DNA from: Patescibacteria group bacterium
Lineage (GTDB): Bacteria; Patescibacteriota; Minisyncoccia; JACQLN01
Length of the DNA: 64,000 nt
Assembly (NCBI GenBank): GCA_038065095.1
Contig: JBBTRR010000004.1
Location: 15,998 to 79,997, forward strand
Direction: 5' to 3'
Program-made: the position numbers and the translations under genes
The notes under the pieces: model-generated
Told to the model about the DNA's origin: nothing
The model's input: the letters and a program-made list of their open reading frames with translations, nothing else
Databases searched by the model: none
In this document: positions 3,586 through 61,634 of the stretch, in pieces
Layout: each line of letters opens with the position of its first letter
Numbering within the stretch: position 1 is the stretch's first letter

Positions 3586-4488
3586 TTAGGCATTTGTCAT
3601 TATTTTTTCATATAATGCCTTAAGTGTTTTGATATCTAGGTTCTGGGCTCTAATTTTTTTATCAAATTTAAGTTCGTTAAAGATGTTTTCTAGTTCATCG
3701 GGTTTAGCCGAATTTGTTTTTTTAAGGTTGTTAAAAAGTGTCTGCCGAGGCTGTTTAAATGCTTTTCTTAGAAATTCTATAAATTCGCTAAATTCATTGC
3801 CCTTAAATTCATTATCTTTAGTTCCAACTCTAAACGTGTCATGAGCATACGATCGTAAGCTCGGGACACATAAGTAAGGAGTCAGCCTGATTATCACAGA
3901 GTCTACTTTTGGTTGGGGCCAGAAGTTTTCTTTGCCTACTTTAAACAGAATTTCGGTTTCAGCCATAAATTGTATTAACGAAGAAAGATAGTTCGCCTTT
4001 GGTGGCTGGGCCGTAATCCGCTCGCCCACCTCTTTTTGAACCATAAGTATCAATTCCGAAGGCTTATTAGTGGAAAGCAGGAATTTTTGGATCAGTTTGC
4101 CCGTTAAATAGTAAGGAATATTGGCAATTATCCGATACGGAGATTTGAGAATTTTTTCGTCAAATTTTAAAATATCCCCCTCAATAATTTTTAATTTGCT
4201 TGCCCCGAGCTTGGTCGAGGGGTAATTTTGAGATTTTAATTTCAACAATTCGGTCAAATTATCATCTTTCTCTATCGCTATTATATTTGCTCCAGCTTCC
4301 AATAACGCCATAGTCAGATTTCCTGTGCCTGGTCCAACTTCTAAAATATTCTCACCACTTTTAATTTTAGCTTCTATAATTATGCGTTTTATTATTTCTT
4401 CGGAAACTAAAAAATTTTGACCAAAATGCTTTATTGGTTGTAAGTTTTTTTGTTTTAATTTGGATTTAGTTTCTTTAACTAGTTTCAT
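3586..4488 (-). CDS. rsmA: 16S rRNA (adenine1518/1519-N6)-dimethyltransferase RsmA/KsgA
   Basis: FGQNFL motif, SAM-binding EVGPGTGNLT and VDS..IRL motif typical of KsgA. Contains an in-frame 39-bp palindromic repeat (see 3833-3872). Confidence 0.85.
   Translation of the reverse strand: MKLVKETKSKLKQKNLQPIKHFGQNFLVSEEIIKRIIIEAKIKSGENILEVGPGTGNLTMALLEAGANIIAIEKDDNLTELLKLKSQNYPSTKLGASKLKIIEGDILKFDEKILKSPYRIIANIPYYLTGKLIQKFLLSTNKPSELILMVQKEVGERITAQPPKANYLSSLIQFMAETEILFKVGKENFWPQPKVDSVIIRLTPYLCVPSLRSYAHDTFRVGTKDNEFKGNEFSEFIEFLRKAFKQPRQTLFNNLKKTNSAKPDELENIFNELKFDKKIRAQNLDIKTLKALYEKIMTNA
3833..3872. repeat. 39-bp nested palindromic element inside the rsmA coding region
   Basis: On the coding strand it reads gtgtcccgagcttacgatcgtatgctcatgacacgtt (encodes CVPSLRSYAHDT). 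The first 24 nt are identical to the hairpin at 42974-43013 downstream of trpS. Confidence 0.6.
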
Positions 4489-17628: not shown

Positions 17629-17730
17629 TTATATTGTCGGCCGACAATACAACCAAGGCTCGAATGTATCCTTATACTTCCCCTGCAAAGAAACATAAGG
17701 ATAAACTCGCTTTCCGATTGTTCGTCGGCT

Positions 17731-18361: not shown

Positions 18362-18628
18362 TTATTTCTTTAACCCTAGTTTCTTTATTAAGGAGTTATA
18401 TTTTTTCTCGTCGTTTTTGGATAAGTAATTCAAAAGAGACTTTCTGTGAGAAACCATCTTAAGAAGACCTCTGCGGGAGTGATTATCCTTAGGATTTTTC
18501 TTGAGATGCAAAGCCAGTCGTTCTATTTCTTCTGTAATAACGGCAACCTGAACACTGGCTGAGCCAGTATCCTTTTCGTGGTCTTGATAAGACTTGATTA
18601 TTTTGTCTTTTTGTTTTGTTGTAAGCAT
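18362..18628 (-). CDS. rpsO: 30S ribosomal protein S15
   Basis: 88 aa; [50 protein letters not shown] matches the S15 consensus. Confidence 0.92.
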
Positions 18629-18891
18629 AAAAACATTAGTCGGAACAGTATTAATTGTTCCAATTAGGTGCTTAATTTATTTCCCTAATATTAACAGCCA
18701 TTATTCTTTTTGGCAAATGCCCAGCATTCTATCGCTAAAACACATATTATTTAAGCTATTCTTTACAAATATACGATATTTAATTGTTACAGCATTAACG
18801 TCTTTTTTGTACTCGTTTAAGGGTTACCATAACGCAGATATTAAGAATTATGGTTAATATAAAAAATAAAAAAACTAATCATAAACCATCC

Positions 18892-18927
18892 ATCCTCATA
18901 ATCACGCTCGAGCGTGATTATGAGGAT
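18892..18927. repeat. CTCGAG-centred perfect palindrome, copy 1
   Basis: atcctcataatcacgctcgagcgtgattatgaggat, 18-bp perfect arms; downstream of the YraN-like gene. Confidence 0.6.
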
Positions 18928-18966
18928 AGTACAGTACAGATGATAATCAGGAATATATTTTAAATA

Positions 18967-19461
18967 TTAGTATATGGCTGACTCAATATGTTTTATTTTT
19001 GCCTTTTTTGAAACTGAATCTATTTCAATTAAAACCGCGTCTATTTGCCAATCAGTATCTTGATCTATATTTTTTTCCGAAATATACAACTGGCATGTTC
19101 TAATAAGCTTTTTTTGTTTAAAATAGGTTAGATTATCTTCTGGTTTTAACCCAAATACATTTTTTAACGTTTTTACTTCAACAAATATTAATTTTTTATT
19201 GTTTGTTCCGTATGGATTATTTAAATTTTTGTCGTGTAAGTTTTTTTTATGCAGAGTATTTAAAACTTTGTTAGTTAATTTGTTCCATATAGAACCATTG
19301 TTATATTTTTTAAAACAAATTATATCTATTTCACCCCATTTTCTTCTAAAATTTCTTTCTATTATTTTATAACCTTTATCTTTTAGATATCTACACGCAA
19401 TATCTTCGCCAATTTTACCTACCTTAAGATGCTGTGGAGAATTAGGTTCTATGTGGAACAT
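18967..19461 (-). CDS. YraN/UPF0102-family PD-(D/E)xK endonuclease-like protein with internal insertion
   Basis: GEDIACRYLKDKGYKIIERNFRRKWGEIDIICF ... LIFVEVKT ... DAVLIEID matches UPF0102. An about 40-aa insert (KYNNGSIWNKLTNKVLNTLHKKNLHDKNLNNPYGTNNKK) lies between the two motifs. Confidence 0.6.
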   Translation of the reverse strand: MFHIEPNSPQHLKVGKIGEDIACRYLKDKGYKIIERNFRRKWGEIDIICFKKYNNGSIWNKLTNKVLNTLHKKNLHDKNLNNPYGTNNKKLIFVEVKTLKNVFGLKPEDNLTYFKQKKLIRTCQLYISEKNIDQDTDWQIDAVLIEIDSVSKKAKIKHIESAIY

Positions 19462-19521
19462 AAAATAGAGTGTAGAATTAGATATATAGTTAAATGATTA
19501 CTTTTGATTGTTTCAAACTTT

Positions 19522-19553
19522 TCTCATTTTGTCGCTCGAGCGAAAAGATGAGA
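19522..19553. repeat. CTCGAG-centred palindrome, copy 2 (divergent promoter region)
   Basis: tctcattttgtcgctcgagcgaaaagatgaga, between the divergently transcribed YraN-like and PaaX-like genes. Confidence 0.6.
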
Positions 19554-19653
19554 TTGATGTGAAAAAAGAGAAAAGGAGAAGAGACGAGACAAAATATAAA
19601 AAATTAGAGAAATTAGAGATGGATAAGTTTATATAATTTACAAGTTTGAATAA

Positions 19654-20220
19654 ATGGATAAAAATAGTTTTAATAAATTAGGTCCAACTAAAAAGAAAAT
19701 AATATTATTGCTTGCTGGGGGAGTAGGGCTTTCTTTGGCAGGCACGCCCAAGAAATATTTTGGTGTTATTAAAAGTGTAGCAGATGAATGGAATAAAATT
19801 AATGAGACGTCTCTTAAGCGGGCTATAAAGTCGCTTTATGAATCAAAATTGATAGAGGCTAGGGAACATGAAAATGGTTCTATGACTGTAGTTCTTTCGG
19901 AAAACGGCCGTAAAAAGGCCTTAACTTATAATATGGATACTATGGCCATTAAAAAACCCGCCATTTGGGATGGTAAATGGCGAATGGTTATGTTTGATAT
20001 TCCTAATAAAAGAAAAAAGGAAAGAGATGTATTGAGAAATATGCTAAAACAACTTGGGTTTATAAAATATCAAGAAAGCGCCTTTATTTTGCCTTACGAA
20101 TGCAAAAACGAGGTAGATTATGTGGTTGAATTCTTTAACCTCCGCCCGCACGTTAGGTTTTTAGAAATAAGTAAATTTGATGATGACTTAGCTTTAAAAA
20201 ACAGATTTGGGTTGGTTTAG
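19654..20220 (+). CDS. PaaX-like winged-helix regulator
   Basis: N-terminal wHTH-like region; C-terminal WDGKWRMVMFDIPNKRKKERDVLRNMLKQLGFIKYQESAFILPY resembles the PaaX C-terminal domain. Confidence 0.45.
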   Translation: MDKNSFNKLGPTKKKIILLLAGGVGLSLAGTPKKYFGVIKSVADEWNKINETSLKRAIKSLYESKLIEAREHENGSMTVVLSENGRKKALTYNMDTMAIKKPAIWDGKWRMVMFDIPNKRKKERDVLRNMLKQLGFIKYQESAFILPYECKNEVDYVVEFFNLRPHVRFLEISKFDDDLALKNRFGLV

Positions 20221-20239
20221 TGGTCTAGGTTTTAACTAA

Positions 20240-20271
20240 TCTCATTTACTCGCTCGAGCGAGAAGATGAGA
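20240..20271. repeat. CTCGAG-centred palindrome, copy 3
   Basis: tctcatttactcgctcgagcgagaagatgaga downstream of the PaaX-like gene, followed by a second terminator hairpin acctccgaagggttacccttcggaggt. Confidence 0.6.
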
Positions 20272-20351
20272 AGGGTATTAAAAATTATTTAAAACCTCCG
20301 AAGGGTTACCCTTCGGAGGTTGATGAGATTAATGGTTGAAATGAATATTTT

Positions 20352-20864
20352 TTACCAATCAGTATTCTCTAGAACTGTTTTAGCCAATGAAACAACTCTG
20401 CTGTCTTTATAATTTGGTTCAACTTTTTTTAGTAGTTTCTCTATAAGTTCTCTCCAATTACGCCTTCTTTGTGGGTCAGGACGCATATTTTCATCGTACA
20501 TTGTAGCTGTTTTATCAACTAATTTTAGTAATTGAACCAAAGAAGATTTTTTATCTATATCTATTTCTTCTTCCCATGTTTCGTGAGTCATTTCTTGAAC
20601 TATCTTGGCGACTTCTGGCTCCACCCACTCTGGAAGTTTTAGGCTCGTATCCTCAAGGACGTCGTGTAGCAAAAGAGCTTGGTAACCAATGCGACGCTCT
20701 TCGTACGGTATACGAGTATCGTTTAATAAAACCATTGCGCACCAAATTGGATGAACAACAAAAGGAACTTTACCGTCCTGTCTAAAATCTTTTTTTATAC
20801 AATGTTCTTGGTGTGCACTGTAAACAAAGTCTAAAAGCTTTTTAAATTCTTTTGGTTGTATCAT
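20352..20864 (-). CDS. HD-domain phosphohydrolase
   Basis: FVVHPIWCAMVLL ... ALLLHDVLEDT contains H...HD...D metal-binding residues. Confidence 0.65.
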   Translation of the reverse strand: MIQPKEFKKLLDFVYSAHQEHCIKKDFRQDGKVPFVVHPIWCAMVLLNDTRIPYEERRIGYQALLLHDVLEDTSLKLPEWVEPEVAKIVQEMTHETWEEEIDIDKKSSLVQLLKLVDKTATMYDENMRPDPQRRRNWRELIEKLLKKVEPNYKDSRVVSLAKTVLENTDW

Positions 20865-24782: not shown

Positions 24783-25004
24783 ATGAATGGGACTATAATC
24801 AAAAATAAAGAAGTAACGCCTTTGGGTATTAGTAAAATTCGCCGATTGTTTAGTGTTGGGTCAGAAATCACCGAACTAGCAGAGGAGGTTTTAGAAGAAT
24901 TAGGGGAATATAAACAAGAGTTTATGTTAGGATTGGAGAAGTCTGTTAAAGAGTTCAAAAGCGGAAAGCTTAAAAAGATTAAGTCGTTAAAGGACCTTAG
25001 ATAG
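24783..25004 (+). CDS. Putative type II antitoxin (partner of downstream RelE-like toxin)
   Basis: 73 aa, charged helical C-terminus, immediately upstream of a RelE/ParE toxin gene. Confidence 0.45.
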   Translation: MNGTIIKNKEVTPLGISKIRRLFSVGSEITELAEEVLEELGEYKQEFMLGLEKSVKEFKSGKLKKIKSLKDLR

Positions 25005-25020
25005 GTTCTTTTTTGATTAT

Positions 25021-25284
25021 ATGAGGAATATTTTTATAACCCCACAATTTAAAAAAGATTTATCTGAAGTTTATAAAAATATTTTTGTTAAGGCTGATAC
25101 AGTTTTATTTATATTAAAGTTAAATCCAATAGATTTTTCGCTTAAACCTAAAAAATTAAAAATTGGTAAAAATTTATGGCGGGTCAGGGTCGGCACTCAT
25201 CGTTTAGTTTATTCATTCAATAAGGATTCTTTAATACTTTTGAGAATTCGCCACCGCAAAGATGTTTACAGAGGTCTAAAATAA
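25021..25284 (+). CDS. RelE/ParE-family toxin
   Basis: 87 aa; ...KLKIGKNLWRVRVGTHRLVYSFNKDSLILLRIRHRKDVYRG is typical of RelE/StbE. Confidence 0.7.
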   Translation: MRNIFITPQFKKDLSEVYKNIFVKADTVLFILKLNPIDFSLKPKKLKIGKNLWRVRVGTHRLVYSFNKDSLILLRIRHRKDVYRGLK

Positions 25285-25288
25285 AAAT

Positions 25289-25313
25289 TCCCCCGACGCT
25301 TAGCGTCGGGGGA
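25289..25313. terminator. GC hairpin terminator (cccccgacgc family, copy 1)
   Basis: aaaaa-tcccccgacgcttagcgtcggggga between convergent genes. Confidence 0.6.
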
Positions 25314-25334
25314 TAGTGTGAATACGGCTTGGAT

Positions 25335-25769
25335 TTAATGACCTTCTAAAAATTTTAGAATATAATCAATGTATTTATGATAATCCCTTAAGCAATCATT
25401 AATAGAAGCATATACTTTTTCGTAATCTATTTTATCGTATTCATGCACTAAAAGATTTCTAGTGCCGATGCTTTTGGCGATTTCTTGGGCAAACTCTTTA
25501 GGGTAGATGTCTAAATCCGAAAGCCTTAAAAATGTTTCTCGGTAATCTTTAGGAGGCATGGTGTTTGCGGTGGCAAGTTCGGCAATAAGGTGTTCGTTGA
25601 TGTCTATAGCCCGCGAGATTGTTCGTTCCAAGAGCCGTTCTACCGTAGCTTGTTTTAAAAAATCTCCCACAATTTCTTCAATGGAAAAATTAGATAATTG
25701 AGCGAGTTTGCTCAAATCATCCTGAATAAGAGATATTTTTCTCTGAATTAAATCTTTTTTAAACATCAA
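25335..25769 (-). CDS. HEPN-domain toxin (DUF86-like)
   Basis: 144 aa; GTRNLLVHEYDKIDYEKVY contains the Rx4-6H HEPN motif. Downstream of an MNT gene (MNT-HEPN order). Confidence 0.7.
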   Translation of the reverse strand: MMFKKDLIQRKISLIQDDLSKLAQLSNFSIEEIVGDFLKQATVERLLERTISRAIDINEHLIAELATANTMPPKDYRETFLRLSDLDIYPKEFAQEIAKSIGTRNLLVHEYDKIDYEKVYASINDCLRDYHKYIDYILKFLEGH

Positions 25770-25770
25770 A

Positions 25771-26193
25771 TTATATAGCTAGAGCCTCTTGCCTCTTTTT
25801 TATAATTAACGATTCCAAATCACGTAATGACTGGCTGTCTATATAGTCTTTGAAAGCGAAGATACGATAGTCTTGGTAAGAAGTTTCATCACCGTAAAGC
25901 AAGATTCCGTTTTGGGTGGCTTCATAACGTAAAAGTATATTAGCTGGCGACAAATCTACCAGATCTATTTTTCTAAAGCCCGATGACAAAGCGTCCGGTA
26001 GTTCGCTACTGATGTTTAAGAAGGATTTATAATCAAGTAAACTATGGTTTTTCCGCAAAACCGCTATGTCTATGTCGCTGGAATCCTTCATTAAACCAGA
26101 AGCCGCACTACCAAAAACCACCACAAACTTCAGGTTGTAGTTTTGGGCGATTTTTTCCACTTGCAGTTTGCTATCCTTTATATTCAACATCAT
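25771..26193 (-). CDS. MNT-type minimal nucleotidyltransferase (HEPN/MNT antitoxin)
   Basis: VVVFGSAASGLMKDSSDIDIAVL matches the GS-x9-DxD NTase motif; 1-bp spacing to the HEPN gene. Confidence 0.75.
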   Translation of the reverse strand: MMLNIKDSKLQVEKIAQNYNLKFVVVFGSAASGLMKDSSDIDIAVLRKNHSLLDYKSFLNISSELPDALSSGFRKIDLVDLSPANILLRYEATQNGILLYGDETSYQDYRIFAFKDYIDSQSLRDLESLIIKKRQEALAI

Positions 26194-26238
26194 GGCATTA
26201 TCTTAACTAAATTTACAGAATAAAAAAAGCCCCGACGC

Positions 26239-26261
26239 AATGCGTCGGGGGTAAGATAAAA
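26239..26261. terminator. GC hairpin terminator (cccccgacgc family, copy 2)
   Basis: aaaaaaa-gccccgacgcaatgcgtcggggg. Confidence 0.6.
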
Positions 26262-26263
26262 TT

Positions 26264-26803
26264 CTATTTTTGCAATCTTAGGCTACTCGGTAGCTCTATT
26301 AGTCCCTGCCCTTTTCTTTCTGGCCATTTTGGACCAGCCTCTCTTTCCTTCTTGGCATTTTTACGGTCGCGGAATTTTTGGGCGAGCCAGAAAAATGGCC
26401 AGCTGACCACTTTAATTCCCGCGCTGTCTCCGCCGTCTACCACAATCGGTTTGCCGAACCAGAGGCCGACGAGGGTTGTGAGAAATCCGACAATGGCATA
26501 GGAAGTAAAACATGCCCTATTAAGGTAGGATGTTAAATCTAAGAGGTCTTGATACATACTTTCCTTGATGACCAACAAAGTAGATGTCGCATCTGCTACA
26601 AATAACAGCATTATGCCTATGATTGTGCCAAATAAGACAGCAGGTACATTCGATCTCTCGGATTTTTCATAGCGTATCTTAGCAGTCAAAATCGCTGACA
26701 GTGTTAAAGTGGCGGAGCAGACTAGCCAAATGAACACGTTGCTTGGTATGGCGGGATGGTAATAGGACAAAGTCCATCTGTCATTGGCTAACGACGACCA
26801 CAA
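26264..26803 (-). CDS. Small multi-TM membrane protein, hypothetical (inside TA island)
   Basis: 179 aa with three to four hydrophobic helices; locally GC-elevated sequence; bounded by GC hairpins. Confidence 0.45.
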   Translation of the reverse strand: MWSSLANDRWTLSYYHPAIPSNVFIWLVCSATLTLSAILTAKIRYEKSERSNVPAVLFGTIIGIMLLFVADATSTLLVIKESMYQDLLDLTSYLNRACFTSYAIVGFLTTLVGLWFGKPIVVDGGDSAGIKVVSWPFFWLAQKFRDRKNAKKEREAGPKWPERKGQGLIELPSSLRLQK

Positions 26804-26967
26804 AGTCTGGCCGAGATCGACAAGGATGAACGAGAAGCCAAGCTAACTTTTTCATAGGATTCTCCTACGTTTAGAGTTTTAGAAAGTGCTAATATTAATT
26901 CTAGCCATTTAGATAATATATTGTCAATAGTGAGAAAAAAGGATGGGTGTGGTAAAGTTTTACCAAT

Positions 26968-27222
26968 ATGGAAACTTACACTTATCGTATTATTATAGAG
27001 TCCGATGAAAATGGCACTTTTCACGGCTATGTGCCAGCTTTGCGGGGTTGTCATACTTGGGGCAAGACCCTGGCAGCTACTAGGGAAAATATCAAGGACG
27101 CTATAGATGTTTATTTGCGTAGCTTGAGGGCTGACGGCGAGATTATACCGCAAGACAACGGCATTGAAATTTTAGAGACTGTTAAAATTTCTCCAATAAA
27201 AAAATCTCCAATCTATGCCTAA
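26968..27222 (+). CDS. hicB: HicB-family antitoxin (UPF0150)
   Basis: 84 aa; YRIIIESDENGTFHGYVPALRGCHTWGKTLAATRENIKDAI is typical of HicB/UPF0150. Confidence 0.7.
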   Translation: METYTYRIIIESDENGTFHGYVPALRGCHTWGKTLAATRENIKDAIDVYLRSLRADGEIIPQDNGIEILETVKISPIKKSPIYA

Positions 27223-27445
27223 GTTGCCGGTTATCAGACATCAGCAACTCATCCGAGTTTTAAAGAAACTTGGTTTTTTTGAACACCCCGAGCGTGGCAG
27301 TTCTCATTTAGTTTTTAAAAATTCCGATGGAAGAGTAACTACTGTAGCGCGTCATTCTGGCGATTTTCCGCGAGGTACTCTGCGGAGTATTCTCCACGAT
27401 ATTAGAATTTCTCCAGAAGAATTTATAAAATTGCTCAAAAAATAA
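27215..27445 (+). CDS. hicA: HicA-family toxin
   Basis: 76 aa; ...GSSHLVFKNSDGRVTTVARHSGDFPRGTLRSILHDIRIS matches the HicA/YcfA consensus. Overlaps hicB by 8 bp. Confidence 0.7.
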   Translation: MPKLPVIRHQQLIRVLKKLGFFEHPERGSSHLVFKNSDGRVTTVARHSGDFPRGTLRSILHDIRISPEEFIKLLKK

Positions 27446-27448
27446 AAT

Positions 27449-27472
27449 CCCCGACGCGTGGCGTCTGGGGGT
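27449..27472. terminator. GC hairpin terminator (cccccgacgc family, copy 3)
   Basis: aaaa-tccccgacgcgtggcgtctggggg-tgtttatttttat. Confidence 0.6.
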
Positions 27473-31156: not shown

Positions 31157-31222
31157 TAGCTTTTAGGTGGATTAGCTTCATTAGCTTTCAGCAAAACTAA
31201 TTAAGCTAAAAGCTAAAAGCTA

Positions 31223-31777
31223 ATGAAGCTAAAAATGATTCCCCAAGGAGGATTTTTAAATCCAGACTCTATAATTTCTAGTTTAAATATTAAATCAGGC
31301 TATAAAGTTGCCGATTTTGGTTCTGGTTCTGGTTTTTTTGCTTTGCTTATTGCGGCGATTGTTGGTTCGGACGGTTCGGTTACGGCTATAGATGTTTTGC
31401 AAGGTAAACTGGATACTTTAAAGTCTGCGGCGCAAGCTCGGGGGCTTTTTAACATAAGCTATGTCAGAGGCGATTTAGAAGTTTTTGGTAGTTCTAAACT
31501 TAACGATTTAAGCCAAGATATGGCTCTTTTAACAAATATTTTGTTCCAATCACAAAAAAAGTTGGATATTCTTAAAGAAGCACACAGAGTTTTAAAAGTA
31601 GGCGGAGAGTTAGTTATAGTAGATTGGGATCCAACCTCTATGTTTGGTTCTAAAGAAACTGGTTGGAAGTTTTCTAAAGAGGAGTGCCAGCAGATAGCTT
31701 CTGGAATTGGTTTTAATTTTGATAGAGAAATTACTGCAACTAATGATCATTGGGGATTAGTGTTTAAGAAAACATAA
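31223..31777 (+). CDS. Class I SAM-dependent methyltransferase
   Basis: VADFGSGSGFFALLIA glycine-rich SAM-binding motif I. Confidence 0.65.
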   Translation: MKLKMIPQGGFLNPDSIISSLNIKSGYKVADFGSGSGFFALLIAAIVGSDGSVTAIDVLQGKLDTLKSAAQARGLFNISYVRGDLEVFGSSKLNDLSQDMALLTNILFQSQKKLDILKEAHRVLKVGGELVIVDWDPTSMFGSKETGWKFSKEECQQIASGIGFNFDREITATNDHWGLVFKKT

Positions 31778-42936: not shown

Positions 42937-42973
42937 TAAACAAAAATTTAAAAATAAAATATCAAAAATATAA

Positions 42974-43013
42974 AACGTGTCCCGAGCTTACGATCGTAGA
43001 TTCGGGACACGTT
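42974..43013. terminator. Long nested palindromic hairpin downstream of trpS (repeat family shared with the rsmA insert)
   Basis: aacgtgtcccgagcttacgatcgtagattcgggacacgtt, a 12-bp outer stem plus inner tacgatcgta palindrome, followed by tttaatt. Confidence 0.6.
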
Positions 43014-43314
43014 TTAATTAGATAAACATTTAATCTCGATAATAATAGAATAACAGAGTTTTAGACATTTTTTTAATTTAAATGTTTTTTGATGTGGATT
43101 AAAATATAAGTATCTTTTTGGATAATAAAGTAAAAGCATATATGCCTATCCATGCGAGCTTGCCAGATGCCTGTAGTCTTGCTGTATTTTTTAGCGCGCA
43201 AAGATGGTTAATTTATATTTCTTAACAAAAAACAGGCTTGTTTATAAAACTTTCGCCGGATTTATTTTGGGAAATTTCTAAGTTCCTTTTTAAACTTGGG
43301 CGGATAAAACAGTT

Positions 43315-61469: not shown

Positions 61470-61634
61470 GTTAGATATTAGCTTTCTAGCTCCTTAGCTC
61501 CTTAGCTTTTTAGGTAAGATTTCCTAGGAAGTTAATATACTAGAAAGCTAAAAGATATTTATGAAAGGATTTACCTCGACACAAGAAAATGGCGTTGTCT
61601 CTACAGCATTTTTAGTAAAATAAAGTTAGTTAAT

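Follow-up and report, generated by a model that had tools for sequence, protein, structure and literature searches.

The Locus and Its Three Palindromes

We analyzed 64 kb of DNA (64,000 nucleotides (nt), hereafter the window) that are part of a 384-kb contig of a Patescibacteria group bacterium from Hainich groundwater (0.1 µm fraction; GC 36%); the gene content and every homologue likewise indicate Patescibacteria. The locus of interest holds a yraN-like gene and, divergent from it, a gene for a short protein related to the repressor PaaX, and three similar palindromes lie around and between the two. Palindromes of this kind also flank homologues of the PaaX-like gene in many other loci, mostly without yraN, and we interpret them as probable operators of the PaaX-like protein. 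The gene order is pnp (minus strand), an NYN gene (minus), rpsO (minus), the yraN-like gene (minus), the PaaX-like gene (plus), two convergent small genes and ftsH. The features of the locus are as follows (positions in the window; aa, amino acids).

18362-18628, minus strand: rpsO
18890-18929: palindrome 1, between rpsO and the 3' end of yraN; 26-bp consensus site at 18897-18922 (CATAATCACGCTCGAGCGTGATTATG)
18967-19461, minus strand: yraN-like gene (UPF0102, PD-(D/E)xK fold family), 164 aa, insertion at about residues 52-87
19522-19553: palindrome 2, in the divergent intergenic region; 26-bp site at 19525-19550
19654-20220, plus strand: short PaaX-like gene, 188 aa, N-terminal winged helix and C-terminal Cas2-like PaaX_M domain, without PaaX_C
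20240-20271: palindrome 3, 3' of the PaaX-like gene; 26-bp site at 20243-20268
20293-20321: classical, bidirectional terminator hairpin with a 14-bp GC-rich stem (-15.2 kcal/mol, z -7.4)

A preliminary description of the window had reported three CTCGAG-centred palindromes framing the gene pair, and both their presence and their positions were confirmed. The motif CGCTCGAGCG occurs exactly three times in the window (18905, 19533, 20251), against 0.26 expected from shuffled sequences, and three occurrences were reached in 0 of 100 shuffles. The three palindromes share the form CAT-N6-GCTCGAGC-N6-ATG. When the pattern CAY-N6-GCTCGAGC-N6-RTG was searched over the whole window with two mismatches tolerated, it matched these three sites only. 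The formula of the preliminary description needs a correction as to its spacer: 5 nt separate CTCAT from CGCTCGAGCG, and a version with 6 nt matches nothing. The hexamer CTCGAG as such is not avoided in the window (5 copies vs 7 expected).

Palindrome 1 has 19-nt arms with one mismatch and a perfect 36-bp core (18892-18927), and it lies 41 nt beyond the yraN stop codon. Palindromes 2 and 3 each form 14 of 16 pairs. The former lies inside the 192-bp divergent intergenic region, its dyad being separated from the ATG codons of yraN and of the regulator by 76 and 116 nt, respectively. The latter is found 20 nt beyond the regulator stop codon and faces a convergent gene (20352-20864), and thus it is not within a promoter. 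As the terminator hairpin at 20293-20321 sits between the PaaX-like gene and this convergent gene, palindrome 3 is not needed for termination.

A Truncated Relative of PaaX

The 188-aa protein contains the central Cas2-like domain PaaX_M (PF20803; E 5.6e-21, 74.9 bits vs a cut-off of 24), and it was this domain, not PaaX_C, that had previously been taken for a PaaX-C-like one. PaaX_C gave no match in the protein, whose chain stops about 15 residues past the Cas2-like domain. The Pfam model for the PaaX N-terminus did not match it either, and TIGR02277 reached 31 bits vs a cut-off of 264. The assignment to winged helix-turn-helix (wHTH) proteins proved correct: in the AlphaFold2 model (predicted local distance difference test score 78), residues 11-81 form three helices and a beta hairpin, and Foldseek matched MarR-type wHTH regulators on the N-terminal half and Cas2 chains on the C-terminal half. 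The best PDB matches were Escherichia coli PaaX (8a39; E 1e-5, full length, the best of all) and Rv0674. The protein is a truncated relative of PaaX repressors in which the Cas2-like domain is the one that dimerises in PaaX, and it is devoid of the effector-binding C-terminal domain.

A profile search showed that the family is sizeable, with at least 631 clusters (50% identity, E below 1e-30), mostly of 180-200 aa. All named matches were from Patescibacteria and were often labelled 'Cas2'. The 188-aa protein itself passes the cut-off of the cas2 model TIGR01573 (28.2 bits vs 24.5), hence the name Cas2 given to such proteins in public records. This annotation is misleading, because neither cas1 nor CRISPR genes were found among the called genes within 10 kb on either side of the gene, or in eight other loci. 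PADLOC returned partial Cas2 matches only and no defence system, and phage and plasmid collections yielded no homologues of the short form. Also, domain, PADLOC and structure searches revealed no known recombinase or HUH/transposase fold or motif in the protein.

Residues invariant across 38 diverse homologues include WDGKWR, D115 (the Cas2-type aspartate of an FDIP motif) and QxS(V/A)F with Q140 and S142. E. coli PaaX appears to have lost the Cas2-type aspartate at the FDIP position, which the short form has kept. A mutual information analysis of protein residues against the type of palindrome centre pointed to position 37, which is G in the clade of the window and K or R elsewhere; this is confounded by phylogeny and is a lead only.

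Palindromes Flanking the Gene in Many Loci of the Family

From metagenomes we fetched 80 loci with homologues 43-77% identical to the regulator and counted the loop-less palindromes within 130 bp of the gene, the other genes of the same loci serving as controls. A yraN gene is nearby only in the close clade and in one distant locus (L082), and about 75 loci are without it. The counts, over 82 homologous loci in all, were as follows.

Upstream palindrome: PaaX_M homologues 37/78 (47%), controls 4/126 (3%), Fisher p 1e-14
Downstream palindrome: PaaX_M homologues 45/78 (58%), controls 15/150 (10%), Fisher p 3e-14
Palindromes on both sides: PaaX_M homologues 27/74, controls 2/121, Fisher p 3e-11

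A laxer search added 13 further loci with palindromes, and three loci fetched independently at a later stage (L138-L140) all carried both copies. Palindrome density was 3-4 per kb up to 100 bp from the gene vs 0.2-0.3 per kb beyond. Cognate copies were not found beyond the gene flanks (3 to 10 kb on either side), save occasional extra local copies. The upstream and downstream copies of one locus shared on average 20.5 of the 24 central bp. The palindromes were chosen by their symmetry, which biases figures of within-site symmetry upwards, and such figures were not used as evidence.

The centres are conserved across the family (RCGATCGY, GCTATAGC, GCTCGAGC) and the arms are specific to each locus. 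The most frequent centres were ACGATCGT (20), GCTATAGC (10), GCTCGAGC (7) and GCGATCGC (7), together with hybrids between them that are a single step away. The half-site profile showed an invariant G at +3, a T at +1 (0.80) and a weaker second block at about +9 to +13. A hairpin formed by the sense-strand RNA was considered and found unsupported: the mismatches in the palindromes comprised 20 G/T, 15 A/C and 30 others, without preference for G-U on the sense strand. A scan of 18700-20500 against Rfam, with E values up to 10, gave sub-threshold noise only. The lack of strand bias and of an Rfam match favours an element acting at the DNA level over one acting as RNA.

Upstream Copies and Promoter Geometry

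The upstream copies fall into two classes according to their distance from the gene. In class 1, the dyad lies 47-50 nt before the ATG and a -35-like hexamer starts at +10 to +14, the clearest example being locus L122 with TTGACA-N17-TAGAAT. In class 2, the dyad lies 27-28 nt before the ATG and the -10 (TATAAT) is at +14. The best promoter hexamers overlapped the dyad ±13 in 17 of 24 loci. Copies placed over the -35 or the -10 are what would be expected of an autorepressor blocking its own promoter.

In both classes no more than 6-11 nt separate the end of the -10 from the ATG, and no Shine-Dalgarno sequence was seen upstream of the PaaX_M genes of eight loci (L122, L087, L134, L065, L107, L111, L125, L124). 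This arrangement suggests, as far as sequence can tell, that the PaaX_M genes of these loci from the candidate phyla radiation (CPR) are transcribed as leaderless mRNAs.

Close Relatives and Rearrangements

We examined nine loci of the same clade, whose regulators are 65-90% identical to that of the window. The synteny pnp-NYN-rpsO-yraN-regulator...ftsH is vertically conserved in this clade, and the palindromes are kept at the same three positions, with some sites degenerate or lost. The position of palindrome 1 holds a site in 9/9 of the relatives whose sequence reaches there; it is intact in eight (L014, L047, L055, L056, L057, L135, L136, L137) and degenerate in L145. Orthologues of palindrome 2 were found in L014, L047, L057, L135, L137 and L143, with a degenerate remnant in L145 and none in L055, L056 and L136. 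Those of palindrome 3 are present in L014, L047, L057, L137 and L143.

The centre GCTCGAGC is constant in most of the clade loci; L056 and L145 have GCTGGAGC or GCTGCAGC (CTGGAG). The RTG at +11 to +13 from the dyad is retained in nearly all clade sites and is missing from 2 of the 4 sites of L143. The other arm positions vary between genomes, usually in concert within one genome, with TCTCAT... in the window and GCGCATATTCAT... in L137.

The preliminary description had offered the terminal repeats of a small inserted unit as a second explanation of the palindromes. The vertically conserved synteny of the clade speaks against insertion, while in-place inversion has affected segments that have palindromes at both ends. 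In L057, L143 and L144, the yraN segment that extends from palindrome 1 to palindrome 2 has the opposite orientation to that of the window, the orientation of rpsO and of the regulator being unchanged. Between L109 and L122, whose regulators are 78% identical and whose sites are of the GCGATCGC type, the whole palindrome-gene-palindrome unit is inverted between conserved neighbours, and homology on one side reaches right up to the palindrome. These cases show that the palindromes are recombinogenic. Each copy is an inverted repeat of the other, so the inversions require nothing more than ordinary recombination.

Homologues 70-80% identical often share nothing outside the gene. In L138, a three-gene segment lies between aspS and mraZ and consists of a zinc-ribbon open reading frame (ORF), the PaaX_M gene with its two palindromes, and a 199-aa ORF. 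In L139 this segment is absent and the PaaX_M gene is elsewhere. A clean cassette insertion was considered for this presence and absence and was rejected, since the boundaries are not at the palindromes.

The YraN-like Gene and Its Insertion

The identity of the YraN-like protein and its insertion of about 40 aa were both borne out. PF02021 (UPF0102) matched with E 9.8e-20, 128 residues of the protein spanning profile positions 1-80 of 80, and the NCBIfam YraN models matched in two stretches (residues 11-52 and 87-163), the domain being split by the insertion. This insertion of about 40-45 aa is restricted to a subfamily whose members have 146-188 aa; the CPR YraN proteins that are less closely related have 120-147 aa. 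At the core of the insertion is a 14-bp palindrome, GTTCYAYRTGGAAC, of which another copy overlaps the start codon. The two copies are located as follows.

19282-19295: 14-bp palindrome GTTCCATATAGAAC, inside the YraN insertion, coding for GSIWN
19446-19459: second copy, GTTCTATGTGGAAC, overlapping the yraN start codon (MFHIE)

The pattern GTTCYAYRTRGAAC has only these two matches in the window, vs 0.09 expected. In relatives, the yraN genes carry 2-4 copies of the 14-bp palindrome in two reading frames (S-x-W-N or V-L/P-R-G-T), which indicates conservation at the nucleotide level. Among 140 fetched loci, the element is confined to these yraN genes.

More distant yraN genes of the same subfamily adjoin nusA and have neither regulator nor CTCGAG palindromes, with up to four copies of the 14-bp palindrome. 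One of these unlinked genes (L141, 3984-4230) has three internal copies 39 nt apart, coding for VPRGT, VPRGT and VLRGT, and another copy at or just upstream of its start codon; further copies occur in a second unlinked gene (L142, 4133-4194). Because yraN genes bearing the insertion occur beside nusA without a regulator, the insertion is unrelated to the regulator: judging from these comparisons, it is a trait of the subfamily, derived from a repeated DNA element, and not part of a YraN-regulator module. As regards the insertion, these genes are the case named in the second half of the refuting condition that the preliminary description had set for itself. The proposal of a conserved two-gene module did not hold in general, as the linkage was seen only in one clade (regulators at least about 65% identical) and in the distant locus L082. 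Within the clade, the linkage still holds.

Other Palindromes and Hairpins

The statement that nothing similar occurs elsewhere in the window is true of the CTCGAG sequence type and does not extend to a sister type with a CGATCG centre (GTGTCCCGAGCTTACGATCGTAAGCTCGGGACAC-like), of which two loop-less palindromes are present, at 3836-3869 and 42971-43016. The former is inside ksgA/rsmA (3586-4488, minus strand), in frame and within the inter-domain linker of KsgA; compared with the Bacillus or Thermus proteins, this linker has 13-23 additional aa. The latter is downstream of trpS. Both resemble the palindromes that flank a different PaaX_M gene (L059). A second PaaX_M gene that could account for them was sought in the window and none was found. 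From their sequence, they may be sites of a second PaaX_M paralogue, GAGCTTACGATCGTAAGCTC-flanked and encoded outside the window. Palindromes with a GCGATCGC centre (e.g., TCCCCGAGCATGCGATCGCATGCTCGGGGA) were also observed downstream of the regulator in L057 (2259-2290) and L145 (3823-3852). They are related to the CGATCG pair of the window and suggest that a second palindrome family is moving among these genomes.

Several other elements of the window were noted. A 24-bp palindrome, TTATATTGTCGGCCGACAATACAA (17629-17652), lies immediately 5' of the pnp start codon and is conserved at the equivalent position in L014; it may be a leader or autoregulatory hairpin of PNPase. A cluster of toxin-antitoxin-type genes (ParE, HepT/MNT, HicB/HicA) is found at about 25000-27450, a few kb downstream of ftsH. 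Similar GC-rich terminator hairpins occur at 25289-25313 and 26228-26252. Inverted repeats rich in TAGCT (TTAGCTTCATTAGCTTTCAGC and similar) are present at two places far apart (31157-31232 and 61478-61551).

Probable Operators of an Autoregulator and Other Explanations

In our opinion, the palindromes are probably the cognate operators of the adjacent truncated PaaX-type autoregulator, and in the clade they enclose yraN as well. The preliminary description had named operators of a dimeric, autoregulated regulator among its explanations. This is now the best supported one, and the evidence for it comes mainly from the regulator family and not from the gene pair. It is favoured because the palindromes accompany PaaX_M homologues with or without yraN, because the two copies of a locus match and their centre and second block are conserved, because the promoter hexamers lie at set distances within the upstream copies, because fold and motifs match those of PaaX, and because sites or their remnants persist at the same three positions in the clade.

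We infer the following mode of action. A symmetric dimer, or a dimer of dimers, would read two blocks per half-site: the GC-rich centre at +1 to +4 from the dyad, with the G at +3 that is invariant in the family, and a WTG one helical turn off, at +11 to +13. The resulting 26-bp site would be CAW-N6-RCKM/KMGY-N6-WTG (the slash marks the dyad), which in the window takes the form CAT-N6-GCTC/GAGC-N6-ATG. Occupancy of the upstream site would repress transcription of the regulator itself, and the downstream site would be an auxiliary operator, acting by looping or as a roadblock, which in some loci also resembles a terminator. In the lineage of the window there are three such sites and yraN is enclosed; palindrome 2 lies upstream of both divergent genes, and from this position yraN would likely be co-regulated with the regulator. 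Recombination between palindrome copies would flip the enclosed segments during evolution. Exchange or gene conversion among the four equivalent arms may keep long arms symmetrical beyond the protein contacts and let them evolve in concert.

Several observations weigh against the operator interpretation. Four features go beyond a plain autorepressor: the second copy downstream of the gene, perfect arms of great length, the absence of further targets and the retained aspartate. The gene next to the downstream copy is convergent in 14 of 23 loci, which also rules out the downstream palindrome as the operator of that gene. Arms of up to 28 nt give sites of 56-60 bp, longer than one dimer should contact, and the invariant Cas2-type aspartate would be needless for a plain repressor. 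No further sites were found in the window or within 10 kb on either side of L138-L140, so the protein would control little beyond itself, plus yraN in the clade. At the window locus, the promoter scan gave matches no more numerous than in shuffles, which makes the promoter assignment weak there, and the clade has its dyad 116-121 nt away from the start codon of the regulator, which does not fit the tight overlap with promoters seen elsewhere. Also, only palindrome 1 is left in L055, L056 and L136. The three sites of L047 have three different arm sequences, each of them palindromic, which looks like selection on symmetry itself.

Some of these features would fit a self-contained invertible or mobile cassette made of palindrome, gene and palindrome, in which the wHTH-Cas2-like protein cuts or recombines the flanking palindromes, perhaps as cruciforms. 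Such a cassette would explain the inversions of the yraN segment in three relatives and of the whole unit in L109 vs L122, the frequent absence of shared sequence around similar homologues, the presence of the aspS-mraZ segment in L138 and its absence in L139, the invariance of D115, QxS(V/A)F and WDGKWR, the confinement of the targets to the gene's own flanks, and the asymmetric centres, which were seen in both relative orientations. We nevertheless regard it as unlikely, as the protein has no known recombinase or HUH/transposase fold or motif, identical multi-copy elements are lacking, and the synteny of the clade is kept over 65-100% identity. A single arrangement was seen in 13 contigs carrying an identical protein, 30-bp inverted repeats could produce the two inversions through ordinary recombination, the L138/L139 breakpoints are not at the palindromes, and phage and plasmid collections hold no homologues. 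In its boldest form, a Cas2-derived nuclease targeted by the winged helix would nick or recombine the palindromes and constitute a new DNA-rearranging unit of CPR bacteria, with yraN captured as a second cassette; this is improbable for us as well.

The palindromes might instead be structural hairpins, that is, bidirectional terminators, insulators or RNA stability elements that isolate a dosage-sensitive gene and are not recognised by the PaaX-like protein; the similarity of the copies at one locus would then stem from duplication and gene conversion. Palindrome 1 scored terminator-like on the yraN strand, several palindromes of the family present an A-tract, a GC-rich stem and a T-tract (e.g., L122 and the downstream copies of L138 and L140), and arms vary freely with complementarity kept. 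The stems are also stable when single-stranded (for palindrome 1 as single-stranded DNA, -17.1 kcal/mol, z -8.9). However, a separate classical terminator follows palindrome 3, and the palindromes are loop-less with sequence-conserved centres in a family 43-100% identical, whereas terminators need neither. Most other hairpins of these loci differ from the palindromes (GC-rich stems with loops of 3-4 nt), the sense strand shows no bias for G-U over A-C nor any Rfam match, and the upstream copies fall on promoter hexamers at fixed distances. Structural hairpins are therefore a doubtful explanation.

It is very unlikely that the sites are substrates or recognition sites of the YraN nuclease, for example as cruciforms, with the regulator merely adjacent. 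Palindrome 1, beside yraN, is the most persistent site of the clade, the YraN fold is akin to that of junction-resolving nucleases, and a weak NucS_C match was obtained on the YraN-like protein; yet the palindromes accompany the PaaX_M gene in the loci without yraN, and they are missing where a yraN gene of this subfamily occurs without the regulator.

Least tenable is a generic dispersed repeat of the repetitive extragenic palindromic (REP) type, or chance, in spite of the two CGATCG-centre palindromes at other places of the window, of which one is in ksgA. All three sites of the window are at the locus, vs 0.2-0.3 expected in 64 kb, and the loci L137 and L143 (6.6-13 kb) hold three to four copies and no others. 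A search of 185,579 species genomes for TCAT-N5-CGCTCGAGCG-N5-ATGA gave about 50 single matches, mostly in unrelated and mostly high-GC taxa; the only relatives among them were L014 and L047, clear exceptions that match at the orthologous loci. The possibility raised previously, namely a REP-like element at many terminators, was thus not borne out, the palindromes having no dispersed copies in the window or in the loci of relatives that were covered.

Comparison with Known Systems

The closest known system is PaaX, the phenylacetyl-CoA-responsive repressor of E. coli and Pseudomonas (8a39), with which the family shares the winged helix, PaaX_M and the WDGKW motif, and which was its best full-length structural match. 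E. coli PaaX represses its own promoter Px by excluding RNA polymerase, and it binds a widely spaced inverted repeat, TGATTC-N27-GAATCA (PMC9493321). The putative operators described here differ from it in that they are uninterrupted palindromes whose GC-rich centre is conserved, and in that they occur both upstream and downstream of the gene. The family is also without the PaaX_C effector domain and hence without a known ligand switch, and the gene has rpsO, pnp, ftsH, yraN and toxin-antitoxin genes as neighbours and no paa genes; in other loci, various housekeeping genes adjoin it. With Cas2, the protein has in common the ferredoxin-like fold, the aspartate of strand 1 and the QxSVF motif of strand 2, but it is fused to an N-terminal winged helix and its loci have neither cas1 nor CRISPR genes.

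The arrangement of one gene between cognate palindromes of its own recalls REP sequences and their RAYT transposases. However, there is no Y1 HUH domain here, and the palindromes are not dispersed in the stretches covered, whereas RAYT-associated REPs number tens to hundreds. Hin and Gin offer another likeness, their imperfectly palindromic 26-bp hix/gix sites flanking a segment of about 1 kb with an invertase gene for about 190 aa; here too a DNA-binding protein of about 190 aa lies between two palindromic sites of about 26 bp, and segments are inverted in relatives. The differences are that a serine-recombinase domain is absent and that inversion was seen between species only, not within a population. 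Finally, toxin-antitoxin operators and those of the C-proteins of restriction-modification systems are palindromic, cover their own promoter and ensure tight self-repression of a possibly harmful product. Theirs are short and upstream only; here there is a single fused protein, whose toxicity is unproven.

A PaaX-type repressor with its operator is already a known kind of system, and the new element is the layout of flanking palindromes across the family. We found no account of this family or of its palindromes in the literature on PaaX, Cas2-like proteins, CPR bacteria and palindromes. To our knowledge, the genomes of CPR bacteria (Patescibacteria) are tiny and contain few recognisable regulators, and there is hardly any knowledge of their gene control. 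Our data tie a sizeable family, mis-annotated as 'Cas2' or 'PaaX', to a precise and predictable DNA site, which corrects a misleading annotation and gives a directly testable protein-DNA pair. They also display apparently leaderless promoters with a fixed operator geometry and document the palindromes as hot spots of in-place inversion. If the retained Cas2-type residue is indeed functional, this family could reveal Cas2-like roles outside CRISPR.

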